The notes beneath the pieces are model-generated. The model did not search any database. It was not told the DNA's origin and worked only from the letters and a program-made list of their open reading frames with translations. A stretch of DNA of 64,000 bases. Source: an uncultured Solirubrobacterales bacterium. Its GTDB lineage: Bacteria; Actinomycetota; Thermoleophilia; Solirubrobacterales; 70-9. This document shows positions 6,512 through 28,111 of the stretch, piece after piece (positions within the stretch are counted from its first letter, which is position 1; every line of letters starts with the position of its first letter). Position numbers and translations under genes: made by a program. The DNA is taken from contig CAWCMK010000007.1 of the NCBI GenBank assembly GCA_963796705.1, positions 6,641 through 70,640 of the forward strand, read 5' to 3'.

Positions 6512-8122
6512 TTAAAAGAGCGACATGCCCGGGGCGACCGGGACTTCGACCAGCTCGGGGGCCGAGGAGGAGATCGCCTTCTGCAGCGCCGCGGCGACCG
6601 TGTCGCGGTCCGAGGCGCGAGAGGACTCGACTCCGTATCCGCCGGCCACCGCTGCGACGTCGAGCGCCGGCAGGTCGAGGCCCGGGGCGGCGTTGACCTG
6701 CTCGACCTCCGCGAACCACTTGAGGATCGCGTACTCGGAGTTGCGCAGGACGAGGAAGGTGACAGGCACGTCATAGGCGACGGCGCTCCAGAAGGCGCTG
6801 ACCGCATACTGGACCGAGCCCTCGCCGATCACGCAGACCACGGGGCGGTCGGGCTCGGCGAGCTGCACTCCAACCGAGGCTGCGAGACCGAAGCCAAGAC
6901 CGCCTCCGGCGCTGAAGTAGTAGCTGCCCGGCCGCGAGAGGCGCAACTGGTTGCGAAGCGCCAGGGTGCTCGAGGGGGACTCGAGGACGACAATCGCGTC
7001 CTCGGGCAGGACCTCGGCCAGCGCCGAGTGGACGGTCGAGGAGTCAAGCGGCTCGCGGGGCGGGATTTCCTGCGGAGGGGGGTTGGGCTCCGGGGCGGGG
7101 CGGGAGGACTCCCCCACCGCCTCCAGCAGCGCCTCCAGGGTGAGCTTCACGTCGGCGATGATCGCGTCGCCCATCGGCGCCCGCGCCGCCTCGTCGGGAT
7201 CGCTGGTGATCGCGACAAGCGAGGCGCCCTCGGGCAGCAGCGGGCCCGGGATGTAGGGGTAGTAGGGGAAGACCGAGCTGCCGACCACGAGGATCAGGTC
7301 GTGGCCCTCAAGCGTCTGGCCGACGGGGCCGATCGCCGGTGGCAGGACACCGCGGAAATTGGCGTGGCCCTCGGGGAAGCCGAGACGGACGCCGCCGGTC
7401 GCGGGGCTGGCCCAGACGGGCAGCCGCTGGCGCTCGGCGAGCGCCACGGCGGCCTCCCAGCCACCGCTTGCATCGATGTCGGGGCCCGCGACGAGGACCG
7501 GAGCGGTCGCGGAATCAAGCCGCTCGGCGAGCGCCCGGACGGCCTCGGGATCGGCGACCGCGCGACCGCTGACGGCACGGCCGATCGCGTGACCGACGTC
7601 CGCCTCATCGACCTCGGCGTACCAGTCATCCATCGGCAGCGAGACGAAGACCGGGCCCCTGGGCGCGAGGCCGGCGAGGTGCGCGCCGCGGGCGAGGGCC
7701 AGGGGCACGTCCTGGGCCCGGGCCGGCTCATAGGACCACTTGACCAACGGATGTGGCATGCGGATCGCGTCGCGGTTGGTGAGGTTGGCCTGCAGGGTGA
7801 TCTGGGCGCGGTGCTGCTGGCCGGCGGTAATCAGCAGCGGCGAGTGGTTTGCCTGGGCATTGAAGATCGCCCCCATCGCGTTGCCGAGACCCGGTGCGGT
7901 GTGCAGATTGGCGAGGGTCGTGCGGCCCGAGGCCTGGGCGAAGCCGTCGGCCATGCCGACCACGACCGCCTCCTGCAGGCCGAGCACATAGCGAAAGTCC
8001 GCCGGGAACTCGGCGAGCATCGGCAGCTCGGTCGAGCCCGGGTTGCCGAACATCGTCGTCATCCCCCGGGCGCGGAAGAGGTCGAAGCTCGCCTCACGGA
8101 CGCTCGCCATGGGCCGCACCAT
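6512..8122 (-). CDS. mdlC: Thiamine-diphosphate enzyme, benzoylformate decarboxylase-like
   Basis: It matches my memory of Pseudomonas MdlC along the full length: MASV..., FGNPGSTELPML, FRYVLGLQEAVVVGMADGFAQAS, LVKWSYEPA, DEAARAPMGDAIIAD, PGSYYFSAGGGLGFGLAASVGVQLAEP. The real start may be the second Met (8110). Confidence 0.75.
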   Translation of the reverse strand: MVRPMASVREASFDLFRARGMTTMFGNPGSTELPMLAEFPADFRYVLGLQEAVVVGMADGFAQASGRTTLANLHTAPGLGNAMGAIFNAQANHSPLLITAGQQHRAQITLQANLTNRDAIRMPHPLVKWSYEPARAQDVPLALARGAHLAGLAPRGPVFVSLPMDDWYAEVDEADVGHAIGRAVSGRAVADPEAVRALAERLDSATAPVLVAGPDIDASGGWEAAVALAERQRLPVWASPATGGVRLGFPEGHANFRGVLPPAIGPVGQTLEGHDLILVVGSSVFPYYPYIPGPLLPEGASLVAITSDPDEAARAPMGDAIIADVKLTLEALLEAVGESSRPAPEPNPPPQEIPPREPLDSSTVHSALAEVLPEDAIVVLESPSSTLALRNQLRLSRPGSYYFSAGGGLGFGLAASVGVQLAEPDRPVVCVIGEGSVQYAVSAFWSAVAYDVPVTFLVLRNSEYAILKWFAEVEQVNAAPGLDLPALDVAAVAGGYGVESSRASDRDTVAAALQKAISSSAPELVEVPVAPGMSLF

Positions 8123-8948: not shown

Positions 8949-9422
8949 ATGCGCATCGCACCCGCCCTGCTCGCCGCCCTGACCCTGGCCGCCGGCCTGT
9001 CCGCCTGCGGCGGGATCTCTGACACAACGCCACCGGCCTGCCTCGAAGGGCCGGCGCATTACATGGACGCGCTGGAGCGCTATCCCGGAAAGGTGGAGCT
9101 GCGTGGAGGGGTGCCGCTCAGCGCCTGTCTGGCGGAAAACCAGCAGGCTGGGGACCTGGCGAGCGTCGGCACCGCGCTGGTGGTGGTCGCCACCCGACTG
9201 AATGCCCAGGCCCGCGCCGAACCCGGCGGTCAGGCCAACCTCGAGCTCGGGTACCTGCTGGGCGCGGCGCAGCGGGGGGCCGATCGCAGTGAAGGTATCC
9301 ACGCCGAGCTGCTACGTCGCCTGAGCGCAGCCGCCCGCTACAGCCGCGACAACCGGCCGCTTCCCCCGCAATTCAACGAGACCTACGAAGAGGGCTTCAA
9401 CCTTGGGCACGCAAGCGGCTAG
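8949..9422 (+). CDS. Hypothetical lipoprotein
   Basis: Signal peptide with a lipobox (ALTLAAGLSAC-GG). 157 aa with no recognised domain. Confidence 0.65.
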   Translation: MRIAPALLAALTLAAGLSACGGISDTTPPACLEGPAHYMDALERYPGKVELRGGVPLSACLAENQQAGDLASVGTALVVVATRLNAQARAEPGGQANLELGYLLGAAQRGADRSEGIHAELLRRLSAAARYSRDNRPLPPQFNETYEEGFNLGHASG

Positions 9423-9485
9423 GCCGCGATCCACACCGACGGCAGCTGCCCCGAAGTCCAAGCGTCAGGCTGTGGCAAGGCGACC

Positions 9486-9517
9486 GGGCGTCGAGGCTAA
9501 GTGTTGCCCCGACGCCC
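9486..9517. terminator. GC-rich hairpin in a convergent intergenic region, a possible bidirectional I-shaped terminator
   Basis: GGGCGTCG (9486-9493) pairs with CGACGCCC (9510-9517), and further GGC/GCC pairs are possible inside the loop. There is no U-tract on either strand. Confidence 0.3.
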
Positions 9518-9609
9518 CGAGTCACCTCACATCACGGCGCCGCCCAGGGAAGTGACGGGAGCCGATCTACGGGATCCCTGCTGTGCGATCTCGGAAAGTA
9601 CCGCACATT
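9486..9609 (-). ncRNA. Candidate small RNA (or leaderless micro-ORF transcript) driven by the orphan consensus promoter
   Basis: The predicted TSS at ~9609 is 7 nt downstream of the -10 TACAAT. The ~125-nt transcript runs to the 9486-9517 hairpin and contains a 5' stem UGUGCG...CGCACA. The longest reading frame is a 13-codon ATG ORF starting at 9608. This is purely predictive. Confidence 0.3.
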
Positions 9610-9615
9610 ACAAAA

Positions 9616-9644
9616 ATTGTAAGCTACAGTACTTCAGCTGTCAA
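9616..9644 (-). promoter_or_regulatory. Consensus sigma70/SigA-type promoter with no annotated gene behind it
   Basis: On the minus strand: TTGACA (9644-9639), 17-nt spacer, TACAAT (9621-9616). It sits in a local AT-rich island in a ~70% GC genome. The perfect palindrome TTACAA-AAA-TTGTAA (9608-9622) overlaps the -10 and the TSS. Confidence 0.55.
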
Positions 9645-9796
9645 GGGGAGCGGCCCCGCCAGTGTCGGCTTGATTGCAGCTAGGCTCGGTGGCGCACCTT
9701 GAAGGGCCGGAAAGTTACATGCGGCGAACGCCCGGTACCGGCGACGGTTTAGGTGGCTTCGAATCGCCGTTCGATCTTGCCCGGTGAGGCGCTCGA

Positions 9797-12553
9797 CTAA
9801 CCGCGCGAATGGCGCTTGTGGCGGGCGAGACGGTGCGCCTTCTTGCCGCCGCAGGAAGCCTTGAGTCGCGCGTGCTGCACCAGCGAGCTTCTGTTCTGGC
9901 CTTCGAAGCCGATTTCGATGTTCGGAACGCGGGCGCAGAGGTTCGTCGTGTTGGCGATGTAGCCGCGCGAGCCGCCATAGAGGTTGAAGACGAAACGTCC
10001 GATCGGCACGTCCGGGACCACCGGGACGACGGTCCGAAGCCCGTTCTTGGTCTCCTTCGATTCGGCTTCGGGGGTGACCATGACCTGACCGTTGAGGATG
10101 AACGCCAGGTGCGGCAGCCCGCCGTAGCCGGACACTGCGTAGGCCGGGCCTTTGAGCGGCTGTTCGAGCAGCGGAGTTTCGTCCTTCACCGCGCCGATCG
10201 CGGAGCGCCCTGCGCAGAGGTCCGAGGCGAGTTCCGCCTTCGAGCAGAGATTGCCGAGGTGTTTCTGGTCGACCTCGAACGCTCGGGGCAGGGTGACCCG
10301 CACCGACTTGATGTTCGCATCGCCCTGGTGGGTGTTCAATTCGAAGCGCAGCGCCGGATCGGCGGCTCGGCGGGTCTGCTTCTTCGAACCGTTGAGGCGT
10401 ACCGACATCTTCGGCCGGAAGGGGAGCGTCGCGCAGTCGTCGGCGTGGAAGTAGGAGGAGAATGTGGCCGCTGTTCCCTGGTCACCGACCCCTTCTGAAA
10501 CGACGCTCATCGGCGAGCAGTTGGTTGGGTTGATCATGAAGTTCGAGCGATCGATGTTCACCCTGATTTCACGCATACGGATCGGGATGCCGCCGATGAT
10601 CTCAGGCACCGTTTCCGAGTCGGCGATCACGTGCGCGTCATGCGGGTCGATTTTGAGCGCGACCCGGACCACGACGACGCCGTAGTCGTAAGGGCCCGCG
10701 AGCGCCGGCGTGATCACCGCCAGCGAGAGCGGGGCGCCTTTGAACGGTCCCGACATGTACATCTTGCCAACCGCGTGGAACGGGTGGCTGCCGGGGCCGG
10801 CGGCTACGTTGGAGGTGCCGATCTGGCTTGACGCCGGGCAGCTCGGATTCAGCTGCTCTTCGGTGCCGGACCTATTGGCCGCCTGAAGGATGGCCGCTTC
10901 CGGGCAGTAGGTGATCCCGTGCAGGTTGCCGGTCAGGCCGGGAGGCATGCTGAAGTTGAGCTTGCCCAGGTACTGGTCCCCGTCTTCGCGGTTGAGCTGG
11001 AGCGAGAAGGAGGAGAAGGCGCCGGCCAGGGAATTCGAGGTCCCCGCCGCAAGGGTCGGGTGGAAGGGTCGCACCGAGCCCGGACAGGCAAGACCGTGCG
11101 GGCCACTTTCCAAAACGAAGCCCTGGGTCGAGGTGGCGGTCGGGATGACGTGGTTCCAGGGCACGAACGTGGCCACGGTTTTGTAGTTCGTGCATTCGAT
11201 CGGGGTCGCCACCAGGCCGCGATCTGAGGAGAACAGGTGCACGTCGAAGGAGTCGAACGGGACCTGCGGCAATCCTTCGAAGTAAATGGTCAGCTGCCCG
11301 GTCTTCGGATCGGGTTTGGCCGAGCCGATCAGCTTCGCATGGAGCCCGAAGCCGTCGACGATTAGGAAGAGCCGGTATTGATCACCCGGCTCCGGTTCGC
11401 CGATGTAGATCGAGCCCTGGAGCGGCCCGGAGAGAGCCGGGGTGTGCAGCGCGACCGAGCCGATCTTGGCGCTGTCGGGGCATTCCGCCGGGGCCTCGCT
11501 GTGGAAGTGGGCGAGGGCGTCACTGCAGGCGCTCTGTCCGTCAGCCGCATCGGGGTTGATCGTCAATCCCGGTGGCAAGGTGACGATCGCGTCGTGGATC
11601 GTCGACGGAGAGACCGCGCGTCCGAGGAACTGAGCGTCCTTGAGGATAATGTCAAGGCCCGATGGCGAGTCGGTTTCATTGCTCGTCGGCCGCGAGTAGA
11701 GCAGCGGCTTGAAGAGCATCTTTTCGCAGCCTTCAACTTCGGGGTAGCTGCTGTGGGCTTCGGAAACGTTTTCGGGATCCTGATAGGTCTGGACCTTGAG
11801 CGTCGTCAGTTGTTCTTGCCCGTTGCACTCCGATGGGTTGTCGGTCAGCGGGTGCACGGGGGCACTCACCGGATTCGGCTTCGCGATGCAGCTCGCGTCC
11901 GCCAGGCCCACGCATCCGGACGGGCGGCCGCTGGCCCCCCTCGGGAAGCGCTGGCCTTCGTGGACGTTGTCCGTCGGGAATCCCCAGAAGGTCAGGTCGG
12001 CGCCGGCCAGGGGCGTCACCTGCGTGATCTCGGAAACCTTGAAGTTCAGTCCGTAGTCGCTTCCCGTCCGTACCGAGACCGGAATCTGGATCGGGATGTT
12101 CAACGTCGGGACTATAAAACCGAAGAGAGCCGTCTCAGCTTCGGAGGGTTCGAGGTCATAGATCGGCGCGGTTCCAAGGAGATAGTTCGAGTTGCCTTCG
12201 TAGCGGGCGCGGATCGTGATCAGCCCGGCCTGGGTCGTCGGCGGGCATTCCTCCTGGGCGAAGACGACCGAGGTGCACCGTTCAAGTGAGTTCGGATTGC
12301 CGAAGATGCCTTCGGGCGTTTCCACCGTGACATTCTCGGCCGCCTCCGGAATCCCCGGGCTTTCCAGGGCGAAGGAGGTGTGCAGATCGGGATGACCTCC
12401 GGCCTGGGTCGTCGAGGCTTCCGTCGTGAAAGATTCGATGCCCTCGGTCGCCTGCGCGGTTCCGGCACCGAGTAAGGCGGCGAGAAGCAAGGCCACGCCC
12501 AGGGTCAGCCCGAATGCGCGCAGCATGCCGGTGGTCGATTGTCCAGCGGTCAT
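9797..12553 (-). CDS. Giant secreted protein D (918 aa), paralogue of B, with four Cys-bracketed beta modules and a polybasic C-terminal tail
   Basis: Signal peptide MLRAFGLTLGVALLLAALLGAGTAQA. Conserved with B: TQAGGHPDL, DSPSGLDI, GQLTIYFEGLPQVPFDSF, KGAPLSLAVITPALAGPYDYG. The ATG at 12553 overlaps the stop of C (TGATG) and is preceded by GGGAGG. The protein ends ...KASCGGKKAHRLARHKRHSRG. Confidence 0.85.
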   Translation of the reverse strand: MTAGQSTTGMLRAFGLTLGVALLLAALLGAGTAQATEGIESFTTEASTTQAGGHPDLHTSFALESPGIPEAAENVTVETPEGIFGNPNSLERCTSVVFAQEECPPTTQAGLITIRARYEGNSNYLLGTAPIYDLEPSEAETALFGFIVPTLNIPIQIPVSVRTGSDYGLNFKVSEITQVTPLAGADLTFWGFPTDNVHEGQRFPRGASGRPSGCVGLADASCIAKPNPVSAPVHPLTDNPSECNGQEQLTTLKVQTYQDPENVSEAHSSYPEVEGCEKMLFKPLLYSRPTSNETDSPSGLDIILKDAQFLGRAVSPSTIHDAIVTLPPGLTINPDAADGQSACSDALAHFHSEAPAECPDSAKIGSVALHTPALSGPLQGSIYIGEPEPGDQYRLFLIVDGFGLHAKLIGSAKPDPKTGQLTIYFEGLPQVPFDSFDVHLFSSDRGLVATPIECTNYKTVATFVPWNHVIPTATSTQGFVLESGPHGLACPGSVRPFHPTLAAGTSNSLAGAFSSFSLQLNREDGDQYLGKLNFSMPPGLTGNLHGITYCPEAAILQAANRSGTEEQLNPSCPASSQIGTSNVAAGPGSHPFHAVGKMYMSGPFKGAPLSLAVITPALAGPYDYGVVVVRVALKIDPHDAHVIADSETVPEIIGGIPIRMREIRVNIDRSNFMINPTNCSPMSVVSEGVGDQGTAATFSSYFHADDCATLPFRPKMSVRLNGSKKQTRRAADPALRFELNTHQGDANIKSVRVTLPRAFEVDQKHLGNLCSKAELASDLCAGRSAIGAVKDETPLLEQPLKGPAYAVSGYGGLPHLAFILNGQVMVTPEAESKETKNGLRTVVPVVPDVPIGRFVFNLYGGSRGYIANTTNLCARVPNIEIGFEGQNRSSLVQHARLKASCGGKKAHRLARHKRHSRG

Positions 12554-15500
12554 CACTGTCCTCCCCCACTCCGGCCGTGCGAGCGCCTCTTGCCTTGTCG
12601 GTGCTTACGATGGTGCTTCCTGCGGTGGTGAGGCTTGACGCACTGCCCGTGACGCTTGACCTTGCCCTTGGGGCAGGTCTTGGTCGGTTCGTTCCCGGGG
12701 ACATGGTTGCCGCCGGTGCCGGTGATTGTGTTGACGTTCTGCGGGGCCGGCGTCGGGCTGCTGGCGCCGTGACACTCGTCCGAAGCTTTGCAACTGGGCG
12801 GCGGCGGCACATATGGGAAGCCGCCGTTTTCGCGGGCGTCATAGACCTTGACCAAGCTGCCGTTGATGTCCTGCGGCACCAGCGTGTCGCGGGTGAAGAA
12901 GTAGGCGTCGGTGCCGTCCGCAGTGGCGCTCAGCAGGCTCGTGTTGAAGGGGCTCACGCCGGTCGAGATCAGGCTCGTCTTGCCGTTCTCCCACTCGTAG
13001 ACGTCTTCGCGATTGTCGAGATCACTCGGCACCAGCGGATCGGTCGAGTTGAAGAACACCCGTCCGTCGTCGGTTAGGCTGAGTCCGTTGCGGGCGAGGG
13101 ACGCTTCGCCGGTCGATCGAGCGTTGGTCGGAGTGCACGAGACGCAGGCGAGCCCTTCGCCCGTAGCGTCGTAACGGAAGACCTCGGCGTGCCTGCCGTT
13201 GATGTACCCGGTCAGCGGGATGGTCGAGGTGAAGACCGCGTCGTCCCCGTTCGGGGTGATCTGGAAGTCGCCCGTGTGCCGAGTGCCGCTTTCGTTGACT
13301 GAGTCGACCACCAGCGGGCTATCGGTGCGGGGGTCGGGCGCCAGCACAAGCGGGCCGAAGCTCGCCACGTTCGCGCCTTCGGAGCCGGCGTTGGTCGCGT
13401 ACAAATTGCCGGCCGAGCTGACCGCAACCGACGTCGAGTTGCTGAGTACCTTTGCTCCGACATCCGGCCCGGGAGCCCTGCGGCCGTCGGCGTGGAAGCG
13501 CAGGATCTTGTTGCCCTCATCGACGTACACTTCGTGGCGAGTCGGATCGGCGAACATCTCGGTCGCGTTGGAGACTTCCCCCGCCCCGAATGTTTCCGTG
13601 GGGTTGCATTCCGAGTTGCACGTTGAGCCGTTGGGCAGAATCACGCGGCCGCTGCTGTCGAAGGCGAAGCGCGCGACTTCAACGCCACCGAAGCCGACGT
13701 AGAGCGTGCCCGTGGTCGGGTCGACCGCGACCCCTGTCTTCGGGGGAGATTCGTATTCCCAGGTCGAGATGATGGTCGAGCCTTTGCCCTTCTGCCAACG
13801 CTCGATGTATCCGTAATAGCCCTCGTAGTAGACCCGTCCCTGATTGTCGACTGCGATGCCGATCGGCTGAGGAGCGCCGTCGACGTAGTTCCCGGCAATG
13901 AACGTCCCGTCTTCTTCGTATTCGAAGACTCGGTTGGCCGAGTTGTTTTCCTGGTGAATCGCTATGTAGAGCACGCCATTTGGGCCCACCGCGATCCCGG
14001 CGAATTCGTGGCCGAGGTTGGGTTCGAATTCCCCGTTGTTCTGCCAGCTCGTGATCAGGTGGCCTTCGGCGTCGTACTTGCGGATTACCTGTTGGTTGCC
14101 ATCGGCCACGTAGACGTCGCCGTCTGAGGGCCCGCCGGAGTTATCGACCGCGACGAATTCCGGGTTTTCGGTCGCGCCGAAGGTGCCCTTGAATTGGTGT
14201 TCTTCCAGTGCCGGGTTGGGCCCGGTGGCGCCCGACTCCAGCGTCGAGACGAATTGTGGCGTCGCCGATCCCGGCTGGTGGAGATAGAGATTGGGCTGGT
14301 TGGCCTCGCCATCCTGAGGTTCGCTGCTGCCGTCGAGCAGTTCGGGGCTGAGGAAATAGATGCTGCCGTTTTGGGCGGCGACGCCGCCGCCGCCGCCGAC
14401 AGCGACGGCGTCGCAGTTGGCGGTTGCGGCCGTCGTGTTCCAGTGCTGGTTGACGGAGTTAGGAAGCGGGCTGCAGCTGTCTGAGTTGCCCGAACCGCCC
14501 GAGCCCTTGGAAACGAGGTGCAGGGTGGCCGAGGAGGCTCCGACCTGTGCTTCGTAGACGTCGGCCGAGTTGTCGCTGTCTTCGCCGTTGAGGCGGTCGG
14601 CGGTCGTGAAGTACACCGTGGACCCGTCTTCGGTCATCCCGTCGTAAAAGGCGCCGCTCGTCGTCCCCGGCGTCAGGTCGACGGTTTTCGACGAATCGCC
14701 GATGTTCATGTACAGGTGCCAGTAGCGGTTCCCCTTCGAGTCCTTGGAGATCAGCTGCCCGATCACGACCCGCGAGCCGTCGGCCGAGACGTCGAGCTCG
14801 GCGAGGCCGTCCGAGGTGCAGTCCATCAGGCATGGGATGCTGCCGCCGCCGGGCAGCTTCGAGATAGCGTGGGTCGATTTGGTGGCGAGGTCGCGGTCGT
14901 AGATTGCCGGGCTGCCGGCGCCGCTCTCGAATTCCGAGCTCGAGCCGAAGATCAGGTGCTTGCCGTTGGCCGAGACGGGCTTCTTGACGAGCATGGCCGC
15001 GGTGGCGCTGGGGCCCGCGTTCAGCGATCCGGCCATTCCCTGAACGAGTTCCCCGTTCGGGAGGGCGACCGGAACGCCGGTCGTACCGTCTGCGAAACAG
15101 GGTGAGCAGAGCCCGGAGCCGCCGAAGGCGAAGGTGTCCAGCGAGGCATCGGCCCCGGCCAGCGGCGAGGCGAACGATTCGGCCGAGTAGGGCAGGTTTG
15201 CCGGGATGCCGACGTAGGAGGTGCTCCAGCCGTCAGCACCTCGGGTGGCGACGTAGGGATCGAGGCCGTGGTTCGTCGGGTGTCCGCTGCCCGGGATCGC
15301 GCCGTCGTGAACCCCGTAGAGAACGCGGGTCGGGTCTTGCGCGTCGGGATAGCCACCGAACGGTTCCTGTTCGGCATTCAGATAGGACTCGACGTCATAT
15401 CCGCCGGCGTTCGCCGCGGAGACGAGCTCGTAGGCGCGGCAGTCGGCGAGCAGCGCGGCGCCGGTCTGCTGGCGGACGTGGGCGTTGGCGCACTTGTCTT

Positions 15501-23842: not shown

Positions 23843-23872
23843 ACTGTAAACGGGTTCGTGCATTTTTGTCAA
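23843..23872 (-). promoter_or_regulatory. Predicted promoter of the A-B-C-D operon
   Basis: On the minus strand: TTGACA (23872-23867), 18-nt spacer, TACAGT (23848-23843). This predicts a ~105-nt leader before the AAGGAG/TTG start of gene A. The -35 lies inside motif site 1. Confidence 0.55.
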
Positions 23873-23881
23873 GCCCGGTAC
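23867..23881 (+). promoter_or_regulatory. Motif site 1: TGTCAAGCCCGGTAC (candidate TetR operator overlapping the operon -35)
   Basis: One of four sites matching TGTCAAG-N4-GTAC with identical spacing. It lies in the divergent region between gene A and the first double-TetR gene. Confidence 0.5.
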
Positions 23882-23890
23882 GCGAGAAAA

Positions 23891-23905
23891 TGTAAAAGTC
23901 GGTAC
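23891..23905 (+). promoter_or_regulatory. Degenerate second copy of the motif: TGTAAAAGTCGGTAC
   Basis: Same length and spacing as site 1, 24 bp downstream (start to start), with 2 mismatches in the heptamer. It ends 5 nt before GTG 23911. Confidence 0.3.
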
Positions 23906-23910
23906 CAGAA

Positions 23911-25308
23911 GTGTCAGCGATCGGACATTTCGCTGTCATATCTCGTACACGCCAAATAATGGCCTGCGGGTTATGGTCTGCCGCCGGGATGGTGCCTGGG
24001 GAGCTAGGTTCTCAGCCGGTCGAGCCGCTTTTCCCTCAGCTCATCGAGGGACTGCGGGGCATGCCTCCTGCCGCGGTCGCAGAGCACCAGCGCATCCGGC
24101 TCGAGGCGGCGATGGTCGAGGCGGTGGCCCGTCATGGATACGCCGGGACAACCCTGCGCGAGCTCGTTCGGATCGCAGGCGTTTCCAAGTCGACCTTCTA
24201 CGACCACTTCGAGACCAAGCAGGACGCGTTCCTTGCAACCGCGGACTCGATCGTGACCCAGATCAGCGAACGGGTGCGGGTCGCCTATCGGGAGGGCTCA
24301 GACCATCGCGACCGACTCGTCCGGGCGCTCGCCACCTTCATGGATCTGGTCGCCAGCGAGCCGCAGGCCGCCACACTGACCATCGTCGAGACGCTCAGCC
24401 TCGGCCGGGCTGGGATCGAGGCCCGCGATCGCGGCTCGGAGGTATTCGAAGAGGCCTTGCGGAGCAGCTTCGAAAGCTCGGCCTCCAAGGTCGAGGTCCC
24501 GCTGCGCACCGTCAACGCGATAGCCGCCGGATTTCGCGGCGTCGTCTACCGCAACCTGCGCGCCGGCACCGCCAGCGCACTTCCCGGCCTCGTCGAGGCA
24601 TTGGCCGACTGGGCCCTCGGATATCAGGTGGCACCGAACGCCGCGGTGCGGCGCGCCGCCGTGGCGGCGGCCAGGCCGGCACCGGCCGCCGAGCGGAACG
24701 CCGAGGCACTCGATTGGAGCGAGCCTCCGGACAGCCCTCGCAGTCGTGTCCAGCTGAGCCAGCGCGAGCGAATCGTCCGCGCAATCGGCCTCCTGGTCGT
24801 CGAGAGAGGCTATGAGACACTGACGATTCCCGCGATCTCCGCGACCGCCGGGACATCGAATCAGACCTTCTACGAACACTTTGAAAACAAACGCGAGGCC
24901 TTCGTGGCGGCATTTGACGACAGCGCCGCCGAGGCCCTGGAGGCGACAACCCGTGCCTTCCGAACCTCCCAGGGCCCGGAGGCAATCGGGGTCGCACTGC
25001 GCGCGATGCTCCAATACATCGCCGCCCACCCGCTCTTCGCTCGGCTTGCCTTCTTCGATCTGCAGACCGCCGGCCCGGCGGCGCTGGACCGCGCAGATTC
25101 CGTGATGAGAAGCTTCGGTGCATTCCTGGAACCAGGCGTGGCTCCCGAGGAGCTCAACGTCGGGCCGTCGGAGACCGTCCTGCAGGCGATAACCAGCGGT
25201 GCCTGGGGCGTAATCCAGCATGAGCTTGCACACGAGAAAATCGAGACGCTGCCCGAGCTCGCCCCAGAGCTTGCCCAGATAGTCCTTGGGTCGCTACCCT
25301 CGACCTAG
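23911..25308 (+). CDS. Single-chain double TetR-family regulator (two complete TetR units in one polypeptide)
   Basis: First HTH: GYAGTTLRELVRIAGVSKSTFYDHFETKQDAF. Second HTH ~220 aa later: GYETLTIPAISATAGTSNQTFYEHFENKREAF. Each is followed by a helical ligand-domain-sized region. The start is uncertain (GTG 23911, ATG 23959 or later). Confidence 0.8.
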   Translation: MSAIGHFAVISRTRQIMACGLWSAAGMVPGELGSQPVEPLFPQLIEGLRGMPPAAVAEHQRIRLEAAMVEAVARHGYAGTTLRELVRIAGVSKSTFYDHFETKQDAFLATADSIVTQISERVRVAYREGSDHRDRLVRALATFMDLVASEPQAATLTIVETLSLGRAGIEARDRGSEVFEEALRSSFESSASKVEVPLRTVNAIAAGFRGVVYRNLRAGTASALPGLVEALADWALGYQVAPNAAVRRAAVAAARPAPAAERNAEALDWSEPPDSPRSRVQLSQRERIVRAIGLLVVERGYETLTIPAISATAGTSNQTFYEHFENKREAFVAAFDDSAAEALEATTRAFRTSQGPEAIGVALRAMLQYIAAHPLFARLAFFDLQTAGPAALDRADSVMRSFGAFLEPGVAPEELNVGPSETVLQAITSGAWGVIQHELAHEKIETLPELAPELAQIVLGSLPST

Positions 25309-25356
25309 GCTCCAGCGGGCGCCGGTCCCCCGCAACTTGGAGCTTGGGAGCGGATC

Positions 25357-25371
25357 TGTCAAGCTGCGTAC
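25357..25371 (+). promoter_or_regulatory. Motif site 2: TGTCAAGCTGCGTAC, abutting the ATG of the second double-TetR gene
   Basis: Exact match to TGTCAAG-N4-GTAC. The GTAC is immediately followed by ATG 25372. Confidence 0.45.
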
Positions 25372-26688
25372 ATGGCGCCAGAAGCAACCGGAGATAGAGC
25401 CATCCAAGGAAGATCTCGGGCTGAGCCGGCCAGCCTGGGTCGCACCGTCACCGAACGGCGCCAGCGGTCCAGGTTGGAAGCAGCGATGGTCAGGTCGGTG
25501 GCTCAGCACGGTTACGCGGAAACGACGGTGGCCGAGCTGGTCCGGGTCGCCGCCGTGTCGAAGTCAACGTTCTACGCGCACTTTCGCGACAAGGAAGACT
25601 GCTTTTTCGTCACCCTCGACACGATCGTCGACGAAGTCAGCGCCAGGGTTGGAGTTGCCTTCCGCTCCCAGACCGGCCTCGAGCGGAGCCTCGCCGCGGC
25701 GCTCTCCAACTTCGCCGACTTCCTGGTCGGCGAAGCCGACGCAGCTTCGCTGGTCGTCGTCCACTCGCTCAGTCTGGGCGCGGCCGCGGTCCCCCATATC
25801 GAGCGCGCCGGCGAGGCCTTCGAACGAACGCTCCGCCAGAGCCTCGCCGAAGAGCCGATCGAGACCGGCCGGCCCTCGGAGCTCGCCGTTCGTGCGATCG
25901 TCGGCGGGATTCGCACGGTGATCTACCGGTGCCTTCGCGATCGACGCCCCGAGCAATTCATCGACTGGCTGGAGCCGCTGCTGAGCTGGGCCCTCTCCTA
26001 CGTCTCCGAGAGGGCCGGGACATACCCGATCGCGCAGCGGCCGCTGCCGGCGGAGGCGCTGGCCAACCCGGACCCCGACTACATCCCCTGGGATGAGCCG
26101 GCCGACAGCCCGCTGAGCCGCGAACGGCTGACCCAGCGCCAGCGGATACTCCGCGCCACCGCCCAGGAGGCGTCCCGTGTCGGCTATCCAAGCCTGACGA
26201 TCCCCACGATCTCGGCCGCTGCCGGAACCTCCAATCAGACCTTCTATGAGCACTTCGAGAGCAAGGAGCAGGCCTTCATCTTCGCCTTCGAGAAAGTGGC
26301 CAAACGAGCGATGGCCGCGGTATTTGCAGCGGCGCTGACCGAGAAGGATTGGCGGGCGGTCGTTGAAGCGGGCCTCCGCGGCTTTCTCGAGTATCTGGCC
26401 CATGAACCGCTCTTCGCCCGGCTCGCGTTCTTCGAGCTGCCAGCCGCCGGCGCCGCGGCCCTTAGTCACGGTGATTCCACCGTGCAGATGTTCACCTCCT
26501 TTCTCGCCCCCGAGGCGCTGCCGCCGGGCGTCCCGACCCTGCCGGCGGTTGAGGTCGAGGTGATCGGCGGCGCCATCTGGTGGACGATCCAGTGCGAGAT
26601 CGCGGCCGGAAACATTGAGAAGCTGCCGGATATGGCGGCCGCCATCTGCGACATCCTCTTCGTGCCCCTCTTGGCGCGCCAGGCGTGA
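25372..26688 (+). CDS. Single-chain double TetR-family regulator, paralogue of 23911..25308
   Basis: First HTH: GYAETTVAELVRVAAVSKSTFYAHFRDKEDCF. Second HTH: GYPSLTIPTISAAAGTSNQTFYEHFESKEQAF. It is colinear with the upstream paralogue throughout. Confidence 0.85.
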   Translation: MAPEATGDRAIQGRSRAEPASLGRTVTERRQRSRLEAAMVRSVAQHGYAETTVAELVRVAAVSKSTFYAHFRDKEDCFFVTLDTIVDEVSARVGVAFRSQTGLERSLAAALSNFADFLVGEADAASLVVVHSLSLGAAAVPHIERAGEAFERTLRQSLAEEPIETGRPSELAVRAIVGGIRTVIYRCLRDRRPEQFIDWLEPLLSWALSYVSERAGTYPIAQRPLPAEALANPDPDYIPWDEPADSPLSRERLTQRQRILRATAQEASRVGYPSLTIPTISAAAGTSNQTFYEHFESKEQAFIFAFEKVAKRAMAAVFAAALTEKDWRAVVEAGLRGFLEYLAHEPLFARLAFFELPAAGAAALSHGDSTVQMFTSFLAPEALPPGVPTLPAVEVEVIGGAIWWTIQCEIAAGNIEKLPDMAAAICDILFVPLLARQA

Positions 26689-27350
26689 TCAGCCGGCGAT
26701 TCGCCTGGCCTCGGCGGATCCCAGATAGGGGCTCAGCAGGATTTCGACGAGCTCTCGCTCGAGCCTCCCGACGGGCAGCGGCAGCTCGGCGAGCAGTGTC
26801 CCCCTGACCACATATGCGGCTCCCCCGACCAGCAGTGTCTCGGTCAGGGCCGGCAACCCTGCCGCCTCGGGGTTGCGCTCGCGCCCCTCGCGCAGCATCG
26901 GCACACCCGCTCCATCTCCGCGGCCTGCCGCTCGAGGATCACGGGGCCCGCGGCCAGCGCCTCGATTACGAAAAAGCGCGCCCGACTGGCGGTTTCTTCG
27001 ATGAACTCGAGGATCGCGGCGACCCCGACCCTGACACGCCTCGGCCAGTCATCGAGGGGGTCGATCGCGCCTGCCGCTTCACTCATCAGCCGCTCGAAGA
27101 AGGCGTCGTGGGCGGCGCTCAGACATTGGCCAGTGCTCTCGAAGTGCGCGTGGAAGACGGCCTCGGAGACGCCCGCGGCCGCGACGACGTCCCCGACGGT
27201 CGTCTCCGAGTAGCCACGTTCAGACGCGACCTTCGTGAAGGCATTGATGAGGCGCTCGCGCTGAGCCTGCGATTCGGGGCTCCCAGACCCGTTCTCGCCG
27301 ACCTCCCGCTCGCGACCGCCCGACTCGCGGCGTCGAGGGTCCCCTGTCAC
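26689..27350 (-). pseudogene. TetR-family regulator disrupted by a frameshift (ORF-track pieces 26844..27350 and 26689..26904)
   Basis: The N-terminal piece carries the HTH (GYSETTVGDVVAAAGVSEAVFHAHFESTGQCL). The C-terminal piece (PMLREGRERNPEAAGLP...LSPYLGSAEARRIAG) is in another frame, yet it aligns with the C-terminus of the paralogue at 27426..28067 (...AAGLPDALEQ...LSPYIGTEEARLAASA). The frames switch at GTGTG (26902-26906). Confidence 0.7.
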
Positions 27351-27358
27351 GGCGCGGC

Positions 27359-27388
27359 AGCTTACGCAGGCTTCACCGAAAATGTCAA
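27359..27388 (-). promoter_or_regulatory. Predicted promoter of the frameshifted TetR gene (near-leaderless)
   Basis: On the minus strand: TTGACA (27388-27383), 18-nt spacer, TAAGCT (27364-27359), then 8 nt before GTG 27350. Confidence 0.5.
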
Positions 27389-27397
27389 GAGCGGTAC
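27383..27397 (+). promoter_or_regulatory. Motif site 3: TGTCAAGAGCGGTAC
   Basis: Exact match to TGTCAAG-N4-GTAC. It overlaps the -35 of the promoter above. Confidence 0.5.
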
Positions 27398-27425
27398 ATC
27401 AAATCGATCGGCGATCGACGGTAAC

Positions 27426-28067
27426 TCAGGCGCTCGCGGCCAGCCGCGCCTCCTCGGTGCCGATGTAGGGGGAGAGAACCATCTCGATCGCTTCCGGTTC
27501 AACCTCGGCGAGCATCTCGCCCTCGTCGCCGAGCAGGTGACCACAGACGATCACCACGACTCCGGCGATCAGGACCTGCTCGAGGGCATCGGGGAGGCCG
27601 GCCGCGGGCGGGTAGAGCAGGCGCCCCTGCTTGAGCTGCGAAGCGGCGCGCTCGATGGAGGCGTAGCGGCGCTCAATTCCGGCCGGACCGACGCGCACCG
27701 CGTCGATCGCGAAGAGTCGCGCCACCGGCTCGACCTCGGCGATGAACTCAAAGACGGCGCGAATCGATGCCCTAACCCTCATCGACCAGTCCTCGATGTC
27801 CTCGCAGGCTTCGGCGACGTGTTCGAGCATCCGCTCCAAGAAGCGGTCGAACGCCGCCAGAAGGCACTGCTCGACGTTCTCGAAGTGAAGATCGAAGTCC
27901 TCCGTCGAGAGCCCTGCGGACCGCGCCACGGTCTCGCGATCAACGCCCCGCAGGCCACGCTCTGTGGCGATCCTGGTGGCAGACTCGATGAAACGCTCGC
28001 GCACCTCCGCCGGCGCCCACTCGGCCGTCGCCTGGGCTGAAACGCCTCCCACCATCAGATCCGGCAT
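27426..28067 (-). CDS. TetR-family transcriptional regulator (single unit)
   Basis: 213 aa with HTH region RERFIESATRIATERGLRGVDRETVARSAGLSTEDFDLHFENVEQCL. Paralogous to the frameshifted neighbour. Confidence 0.8.
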   Translation of the reverse strand: MPDLMVGGVSAQATAEWAPAEVRERFIESATRIATERGLRGVDRETVARSAGLSTEDFDLHFENVEQCLLAAFDRFLERMLEHVAEACEDIEDWSMRVRASIRAVFEFIAEVEPVARLFAIDAVRVGPAGIERRYASIERAASQLKQGRLLYPPAAGLPDALEQVLIAGVVVIVCGHLLGDEGEMLAEVEPEAIEMVLSPYIGTEEARLAASA

Positions 28068-28073
28068 GGGTCA

Positions 28074-28102
28074 ACAATGACCGGTACACATTCTCCTGTC
28101 AA
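28074..28102 (-). promoter_or_regulatory. Predicted promoter of TetR 27426..28067 (leaderless mRNA predicted)
   Basis: On the minus strand: TTGACA (28102-28097), 17-nt spacer, CATTGT (28079-28074), then 6 nt before ATG 28067. Confidence 0.45.
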
Positions 28103-28111
28103 GGAAAGTAC
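28097..28111 (+). promoter_or_regulatory. Motif site 4: TGTCAAGGAAAGTAC
   Basis: Exact match to TGTCAAG-N4-GTAC, in the divergent region between the TetR gene and fumC. Confidence 0.5.

Follow-up and report, generated by a model that had tools for sequence, protein, structure and literature searches.

The segment at 9476-9646 on the minus strand of the window (the whole 64,000-nt stretch of DNA from an uncultured Solirubrobacterales bacterium analysed here) is probably, with a probability of about 0.6, a true gene, kept by selection, whose product is a non-coding RNA of ~125-135 nt, derived from the leader of a TetR gene and standing alone. From comparative sequence evidence, the element is very likely under selection and is likely to be transcribed into a folded RNA. 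The first-pass annotation had proposed an RNA of ~125 nt bounded by a hairpin, and what was found is a conserved structured non-coding RNA of about that size, ending at the predicted hairpin. The site and its flanks comprise the following features:

9476..9646 (minus strand): whole module (promoter plus RNA), matched end to end by both covariance models
9639-9645 (minus strand): -35 box TTGACA (hexamer 9644-9639) preceded by C; on the plus strand this reads as the heptamer TGTCAAG of the double-TetR operator
9629..9632: GTAC in the promoter spacer, 6 nt past the -35 box; candidate repressor contact, present in 12/13 homologues
9616..9621 (minus strand): -10 box TACAAT; family consensus KTACAnT, kept in 13/13 homologues
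9608..9622: perfect inverted repeat TTACAA-AAA-TTGTAA, spanning the -10 box and the predicted start
9606..9609 (minus strand): predicted transcription start, placed by its distance from the -10 box
9582..9607 (minus strand): 5′ hairpin UGUGCG/CGCACA (arms 9607-9602 and 9587-9582), specific to the window
9535..9564 (minus strand): stem-loop 2, with apical loop ACUUCCCUG (9553-9545) closed by CGUC/GGCG
9559-9540 (minus strand): 20-nt core CCCGTCACTTCCCTGGGCGG, inside stem-loop 2
9478..9527 (minus strand): 3′ domain, with a 12-bp GC hairpin (9517-9506 with 9497-9486) and basal helix AGGUGAC/GUCGCCU, without a U-tract
9797..12556 (minus strand): gene D, directly upstream on the same strand, last gene of a secreted-protein operon
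8949..9422 (plus strand): convergent lipoprotein gene (lipobox LSAC), stop codon 54 nt from the end of the RNA module

The flanking genes, a lipoprotein gene on the plus strand and gene D on the minus strand, are as described in the first-pass annotation. The product of gene D is a secreted protein of 919 aa that lacks Pfam domains; its family has 27 matches in the source genome. The source genome is a 3.4-Mb MAG of 67.6% GC.

The minus-strand promoter, previously placed at 9644-9639 and 9621-9616, is present there and is conserved in homologues, and is thus a selected feature. TTGACA and TACAAT, separated by a 17-nt spacer, match the consensus at 11 of 12 positions; the hexamers and spacer are those of a housekeeping (sigma-70/SigA-type) promoter (spacer 16-18 nt), with the same elements and spacing in 13 homologues. 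No other promoter-like site was found between 8500 and 10800, where shuffled sequences give 0.1. The AT-rich patch reported around the promoter was also recovered (50% GC at 9550-9649, ~68% in the surroundings). Across the whole 3.4-Mb genome four sites reach 11/12 consensus matches, ~1.7 being expected by chance (a back-of-envelope i.i.d. estimate), so that the match to consensus is not decisive by itself; on the comparisons described below, it is conservation, not the consensus match, that raises the window site above chance. The composite TTGACA-N6-GTAC occurs once in the entire genome.

The 374-bp gap between gene D and the lipoprotein gene had no BLAST match in 40 relatives, which reflects a lack of sensitivity and not of conservation. 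Homologues were discovered by directly reading the DNA downstream of single-copy lipoprotein orthologues. In the closest relative, the sister species G006, the corresponding position is occupied by two tandem minus-strand units, one of which has an identical offset; gene D is 73% identical and the lipoprotein ~60% (flanking proteins 60-73% overall), and BLAST detected no DNA similarity between the two loci. Both G006 units have TTGACA-N17-TACATT with the same spacer word (GRAGTAC), the blocks TGTAA...CGGTA and TCAnnTCCCT, and a GC hairpin with compensatory changes. The left flank in G006 is syntenic (FAD oxidase, TPP enzyme, orf8172, lipoprotein); on the right, secreted-protein genes are found once more.

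Searches with a strict promoter composite (150 genomes of the order) and with strict RNA blocks (162 genomes of the genus) each returned only the window genome and G006, but these patterns were too strict, as a covariance model later gave ~10 more species. The promoter composite also identified a clear homologue (L076) and a 5′-truncated copy (L051) on metagenome contigs; among GTDB species representatives, a set that may omit the window's own genome, it found G006, one different Solirubrobacterales promoter and chance matches in AT-rich genomes. Model R1, covering promoter and RNA and built from the window-genome and G006 copies, had full-length matches in nine further species among the 162 of the genus (G301, with two copies, G014, G307, G280, G186, G305, G264, G250 and G269; E 1e-23 to 1e-7), and weaker ones elsewhere. 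The window itself scores 148 bits with R1 (E ~1e-38; this row helped to build the model) and 120 bits with R2, and its genome has one copy of this promoter-plus-RNA subfamily. Among 201 genomes of the family, R2 scored 74 bits in G401, which belongs to another genus, and had two weak matches. At least 11 of the 162 genus species therefore have a full-length homologue, as do one species of another genus and one metagenome contig. The distribution is patchy: the model detects the element in ~7% of the species of the genus, and the 20-nt core is present in 17%.

Neither the window region nor 11 homologous loci gave an Rfam score close to the gathering threshold of any family; P17 and Scr3202 (E 0.13-0.35) were far under theirs and were rejected. 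No tRNA, tmRNA or integration site was found at the window site. As delimited by these searches, the element is a new RNA family, confined to one uncultured soil genus of Solirubrobacterales and at least one neighbouring genus. Solirubrobacterales and Thermoleophilia are abundant, almost uncultured soil Actinobacteria. A literature search found no small or leader RNA for Solirubrobacterales/Thermoleophilia, and Rfam had no match.

The 20-nt core CCCGTCnnTTCCCTGnGCGG extends beyond this subfamily, with four copies in the source genome and occurrences in 28/162 species of the genus (41 matches, compared with 7 for a reversed control). Of the other own-genome copies, two are found 135 nt ahead of TetR paralogues and one is ~175 nt past a TetR-like gene. 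The promoters of these three copies are of a different type (CTTGACA-N4-GGTC-N7-TGTTCTnAT), and their stems covary (GGGGUCGC/GCGAUCCC versus GGGAUCGC/GCGGUCCC).

Within the promoter, the -35 box is exactly TTGACA in 10 of the 13 homologues and has a C before it in 10, GTAC follows it at exactly 6 nt in 12, and KTACAnT is found in all 13, so the conserved promoter of the module, as read from this alignment, is CTTGACA-N6-GTAC-N6-TTACAnT. The spacer GTAC is not needed by polymerase, and its conservation therefore points to a bound protein. An operator had earlier been proposed at the palindrome over the -10 box. The perfect repeat is indeed present at 9608-9622, but its 6-3-6 form was found in the window genome only and results from the loss of ~10 nt that the nearest relatives have. 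Downstream, 8/13 homologues have an inverted counterpart of the -10 word (TACA...TGTA), either 1-3 nt or 13-15 nt away, so an operator role for the palindrome may still be entertained; the spacer GTAC appears to be the better operator candidate. Periodic KTAM words past the start, suggestive of an operator array in the window, vary in homologues and were discarded as such.

The heptamer at the -35 box connects this promoter to the operator of single-chain double-TetR regulators. Only four sites with TGTCAAG-N4-GTAC exist in the genome, all within 23867-28111 at promoters that serve the TetR array and the giant operon, and no other was found in the window, even with one mismatch. As the first-pass annotation had observed, the window -35 box carries this heptamer without its GTAC partner: TGTCAAG at 9639-9645 is followed by GGGAGCGG, with no GTAC four bases beyond, and the full operator is absent from the window promoter. 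The two arrangements thus share the heptamer (CTTGACA being its reverse complement) and a conserved GTAC, but in the window GTAC lies 6 nt away on the other side of the heptamer, in the spacer, rather than 4 nt beyond. In two homologous promoters (L103 and L076) the full GTAC-N4-CTTGACA operator is present as well as the spacer GTAC, so that control of the window promoter by a TetR-type repressor can reasonably be inferred. The suspected link to the TetR motif is borne out by these two full operator words and by TetR genes being the commonest neighbours of the element.

The conserved words (CTTGACA, GTAC, TTACA/TGTAA and perhaps also the 20-nt core) could instead act as DNA, forming a group of sites bound by TetR-type proteins and serving as a landing pad or decoy. 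Such an explanation accommodates the ~10-11-bp steps between GTAC and TTACA/TGTAA words in the window, the two spacing classes of the inverted -10-word counterpart, about one helical turn apart, and the TetR genes that are the usual neighbours, but the periodic words past the start vary among homologues, exact -35 and -10 boxes with a 17-nt spacer imply a transcript, and stem-loop 2 and the 3′ hairpin have compensatory changes, which are constraints at the RNA level. We give it only a slim chance of being correct.

The fold of the 132-nt RNA is better than that of all 200 dinucleotide shuffles (z = -3.2), and all pairs proposed for the window RNA are canonical. The 5′ stem UGUGCG/CGCACA and the GC hairpin at 9486-9517, both predicted earlier, are found at those positions. 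In relatives, hairpin 1 has an outer stem, CCCCUG/CAGGGG, surrounding ACAGCGGUA; the window lacks ~10 nt that include the 5′ arm of this stem and has its own UGUGCG/CGCACA hairpin instead. In a MAFFT alignment made without a covariance model, pairing reaches 91% in the inner stem of stem-loop 2 (CGUC/GRCG, closing nnUUCCCUG) and 97% in the 3′ hairpin, where six pairs have both partners changed. The model-fitted alignment has 83% of cells pairing and 16 doubly changed pairs, a result reached by 0/500 shuffles, while slid controls on this alignment are 41-50% paired. The basal helix AGGUGAC/GUCGCCU, although seen in single-sequence folds, is 50% paired in the independent alignment and was not accepted as proven. 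Conservation and covariation in relatives had been named as a check on the first-pass proposal, and here both promoter and structured RNA proved to be kept, with compensatory changes.

The loop of stem-loop 2 has the family form RUCACYUCCCUG (AUCACCUCC in one G006 copy) and resembles the anti-Shine-Dalgarno 3′ end of the 16S rRNA of this genome, GGAUCACCUCCUUUCU. YCCCU is unpaired in the loop in 10/13 single-sequence folds, with stem sequences that are quite different; an unpaired C-rich motif in a hairpin loop, one mark of the 6C/UCCC-motif class, is therefore present.

A leaderless micro-ORF had also been suggested as the product. A 13-codon ORF (MCGTFRDRTAGIP) does begin at ATG 9608-9606, coinciding with the predicted start, and might be translated with no leader or a short one, but we give this almost no credence. 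The ATG and frame are absent from all homologues (G006 reads TGTGTAAACAGCGG at this place), no small protein is conserved in frame, module lengths differ among homologues by indels that are not multiples of three, and the coding signature is missing (GC3 0.59-0.68 in the ORF region, 0.82 in real genes).

The surroundings of the homologues suggest where the RNA came from. The same-strand upstream gene in 11/15 loci is either a gene D relative with a Cys-plus-basic tail or encodes a 260-aa secreted protein. A same-strand TetR gene follows in 6/18 loci (L103, L107, L109, L111, L124 and L105; Pfam TetR_N above cut-off), and in three further loci double-TetR genes flank the element. In L103, L107, L109 and L111 the TetR start codon is 0-25 nt past the hairpin, which leaves no room for another promoter; the L105 TetR gene has its own GTAC-N4-CTTGACA word. 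The lipoprotein gene is convergent in G006, G280 and G301, as in the window. The gene order in G301 is D-like gene, RNA, TetR gene and convergent lipoprotein gene; at the loci of the window, G006 and G280 no TetR gene intervenes, and the lipoprotein gene is what the RNA directly faces. It follows that the module, an orphan in the window genome, is the leader of a TetR gene in many species. The 'orphan' status given to this promoter at first pass thus holds for the window lineage, but elsewhere the same RNA runs into a TetR gene. Candidate stand-alone units, with their own promoter and hairpin and no co-transcribed ORF, are seen in the window, G006, G280 and L119. The co-directional downstream gene that a 5′ leader or riboswitch would have is absent at the window site, where the next gene is convergent.

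This history raises the question of decay. As ~10 nt with the 5′ arm of hairpin 1 are absent, the window copy could be decaying, and the site would then be a relic, i.e. a promoter and leader left over after loss of TetR, maybe transcribed but no longer selected in this lineage. We consider this unlikely. The syntenic homologue in G301, which keeps the TetR gene between RNA and lipoprotein gene, the deletion of one hairpin 1 arm and the target searches (below), which were without result, are what a relic would predict, but the window promoter is the best consensus match in the family (11/12), and loop, stem-loop 2 and 3′ hairpin are intact with every proposed pair canonical. In addition, the orphan form is found in three species with flanking proteins only 60-67% identical, including a tandem duplicate in G006, and the surrounding intergenic DNA is not alignable.

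The 3′ end of the RNA is less sharply defined. The 12-bp hairpin is followed by GGUCGCCUUGCC, with no U-tract, and a terminator scan gives no call there, so the site lacks the hairpin plus U-tract of an intrinsic (Rho-independent) terminator. Terminators without a U-tract have been reported in Actinobacteria, and termination at this hairpin is possible. In TetR-linked homologues the hairpin must allow read-through, and a discrete 3′ end is therefore not assured. In 9/11 loci the promoter lies only 18-54 nt past the upstream stop codon, so the upstream operon probably ends at the hairpin of the RNA; no discrete terminator hairpin was found between gene D and the promoter.

The element might act only in cis at the end of the operon, as a shared 3′ UTR/terminator for both strands, with the promoter giving antisense transcription or interference at the 3′ end of the lipoprotein gene. 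The short distances in 9/11 loci leave no room for a separate terminator, the hairpin also matches its model on the opposite strand, and the lack of a U-tract would permit read-through into the lipoprotein gene. We nevertheless regard a purely cis role as quite improbable: a 3′ UTR needs no conserved strong promoter, conservation of the loop motif and stem-loop 2 far exceeds the needs of a terminator, and the RNA is kept at loci without the lipoprotein gene (L105, L119, L104, L107 and L109). A tie between element and lipoprotein gene was itself rejected, homologues without this gene being located behind D-family or 260-aa secreted-protein genes.

If the site is a stand-alone RNA gene, as we favour, the near-consensus housekeeping-type promoter would start minus-strand transcription near 9609-9606, giving an RNA with the 5′ hairpin, a second hairpin displaying ACUUCCCUG and a long GC hairpin without a U-tract, at which most transcripts would end. 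Any read-through past this hairpin in the window would go antisense into the lipoprotein gene. In many species the RNA would form the 5′ leader of a TetR gene right behind the secreted-protein operon; this downstream TetR reading frame is absent in the window genome, G006 and a third species, and the module would therefore persist there as a stand-alone sRNA. A TetR-type protein may repress the promoter through the CTTGACA and GTAC words, and the free RNA is predicted to pair through its CU-rich loop with purine-rich ribosome-binding sites, in the manner of 6C/UCCC-motif sRNAs. A genome-wide scan for 9-mer complements and duplex energies at 11 local start regions identified no target above background; the best local duplex, at the start of gene D (-15.6 kcal/mol), is at the 4th percentile of background among 11 tests.

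A more elaborate scheme seems doubtful, in which a TetR circuit governing secreted surface-protein operons would use one RNA in three ways: as a 3′ end shared with the operon, as a gate at the TetR start codon (attenuator or translational lock) and, once released or orphaned, as a free anti-Shine-Dalgarno mimic. If true, it would place an RNA layer within TetR regulation, possibly ligand-sensing or bound by TetR, that is undescribed for this regulator family, and gating of TetR or action on ribosome-binding sites would add a post-transcriptional layer to regulators thought to be DNA-binding only. If the element is only a lineage-specific sRNA, the result is ordinary but still provides a useful annotation and a candidate new Rfam family. 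The family ties giant secreted-protein operons, single-chain double-TetR regulators and the asymmetric operator into one module, and offers a defined regulatory element that lends itself to testing by DNA synthesis.

Among known RNAs, type I 3′-UTR sRNAs such as DapZ and MicL are transcribed from a promoter of their own near the end of an operon, whose terminator they share, and SreA and SreB of Listeria are riboswitch-derived sRNAs released from 5′ leaders. The present family resembles the former in the position of its promoter, 18-54 nt past the upstream stop in most homologues, and in a 3′ hairpin common to the upstream operon, and resembles the latter in that the window-type RNA is, in other species, the leader of the next gene. 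It differs from all four in that a single family, known from sequence alone, has both arrangements as well as an orphan form.

The 6C sRNA of M. tuberculosis pairs G-rich ribosome-binding sites through C-rich hairpin loops, with no RNA chaperone (PMC6486639). Like 6C (RF01066), the window family is a small structured RNA of high-GC Gram-positives, with a loop (nnUUCCCUG) that could pair likewise. However, the 6C model has no match in the window (E up to 10) or in the 11 loci (E up to 1), the window family has one CU-rich loop with three Cs rather than several C-rich loops, and architecture, promoter and genomic context differ. In UCCC-motif sRNAs of Staphylococcus aureus (RsaE and relatives, RNAIII), UCCC binds the Shine-Dalgarno sequence and blocks initiation (PMC2790875). 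These share with the window family an unpaired UCCC in the most conserved part and the layout of a 5′ hairpin and a 3′ hairpin, but belong to an unrelated phylum and have no sequence or model match to it, and for the window family the function is a predicted one. By analogy, stand-alone action in trans through the CU-rich loop would fit the mode of both 6C and the UCCC-motif sRNAs.

Three additional copies of the 20-nt core CCCGTCnnTTCCCTGnGCGG, the conserved stretch in stem-loop 2 of the RNA element, are found outside the window in the same genome and constitute a second, larger subfamily of the window's RNA:

C3:55308-55327, minus strand, additional copy of the 20-nt core
C3:369864-369883, plus strand, additional copy of the 20-nt core
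C4:914760-914779, plus strand, additional copy of the 20-nt core

All three are embedded in a longer hairpin and followed by a long GC hairpin. TetR paralogues lie 135 nt downstream of two of these copies, while the third is itself located downstream of a TetR-like gene. This genome also has a second shared promoter type, CTTGACA-N4-GGTC-N7-TGTTCTnAT, preceding the paralogous core-bearing leaders and one leaderless TetR gene:

C3:361922, promoter of the second type
near C3:369780, promoter of the second type
near C4:914680, promoter of the second type
near C3:55400, promoter of the second type

The conserved spacer word here is GGTC, whereas that of the window promoter is GTAC. On the minus strand of the window (9629-9598), GTAC, TTAC, GTAA and GTAC occur in series at steps of 10, 11 and 10 nt, beginning in the promoter spacer and extending into the transcribed region, and a ~10-nt deletion compared to the sister species (G006) preserves the phase of this series. 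The regular spacing could be a coincidence or a protein-binding array. Another GTAC is contained in a palindrome located ~90 nt ahead of the -35 box, for which no counterpart was seen in homologues:

window 9732-9741, palindrome CCGGTACCGG, after the stop codon of gene D and before the promoter

The closest orthologue of gene D, the secreted Cys-tail protein gene directly upstream of the RNA, is in G006 (L005; G006:C1:74283-77006; 73% identity) and carries one in-frame TAA. About 280 kb separate it from the lipoprotein locus of G006 that is syntenic with the window's, so the giant operon beside the RNA is not the same in the two sister species. At four loci the position upstream of the RNA is occupied, in place of a gene D relative, by a gene for a secreted protein of about 255-260 aa (no Pfam match; ending ...SASCPAP.G......PFAKAS.....G......L.R.C...). 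Genes of this family are often in tandem; examples are:

2-981 of metagenome contig L076, secreted-protein gene
11027-11809 of L048, minus strand, secreted-protein gene

In a Solirubrobacterales MAG (SMAG_U6787, DATAEW010000073.1, around 6900-6990), the composite form of the window promoter, TTGACA-N6-GTAC-N6-TTACAAT, recurs with no RNA homologue behind it; a complete GTAC-N4-CTTGACA operator begins ~20 nt further on, accompanied by a second promoter and a gene. At L108 (G305, same genus) and L123 (G401, another genus), the RNA element has a double-TetR gene on either side, the two genes being in tandem on the strand opposite to it. The RNA promoter is divergent from one of these genes, as in a classical TetR/target intergenic region.
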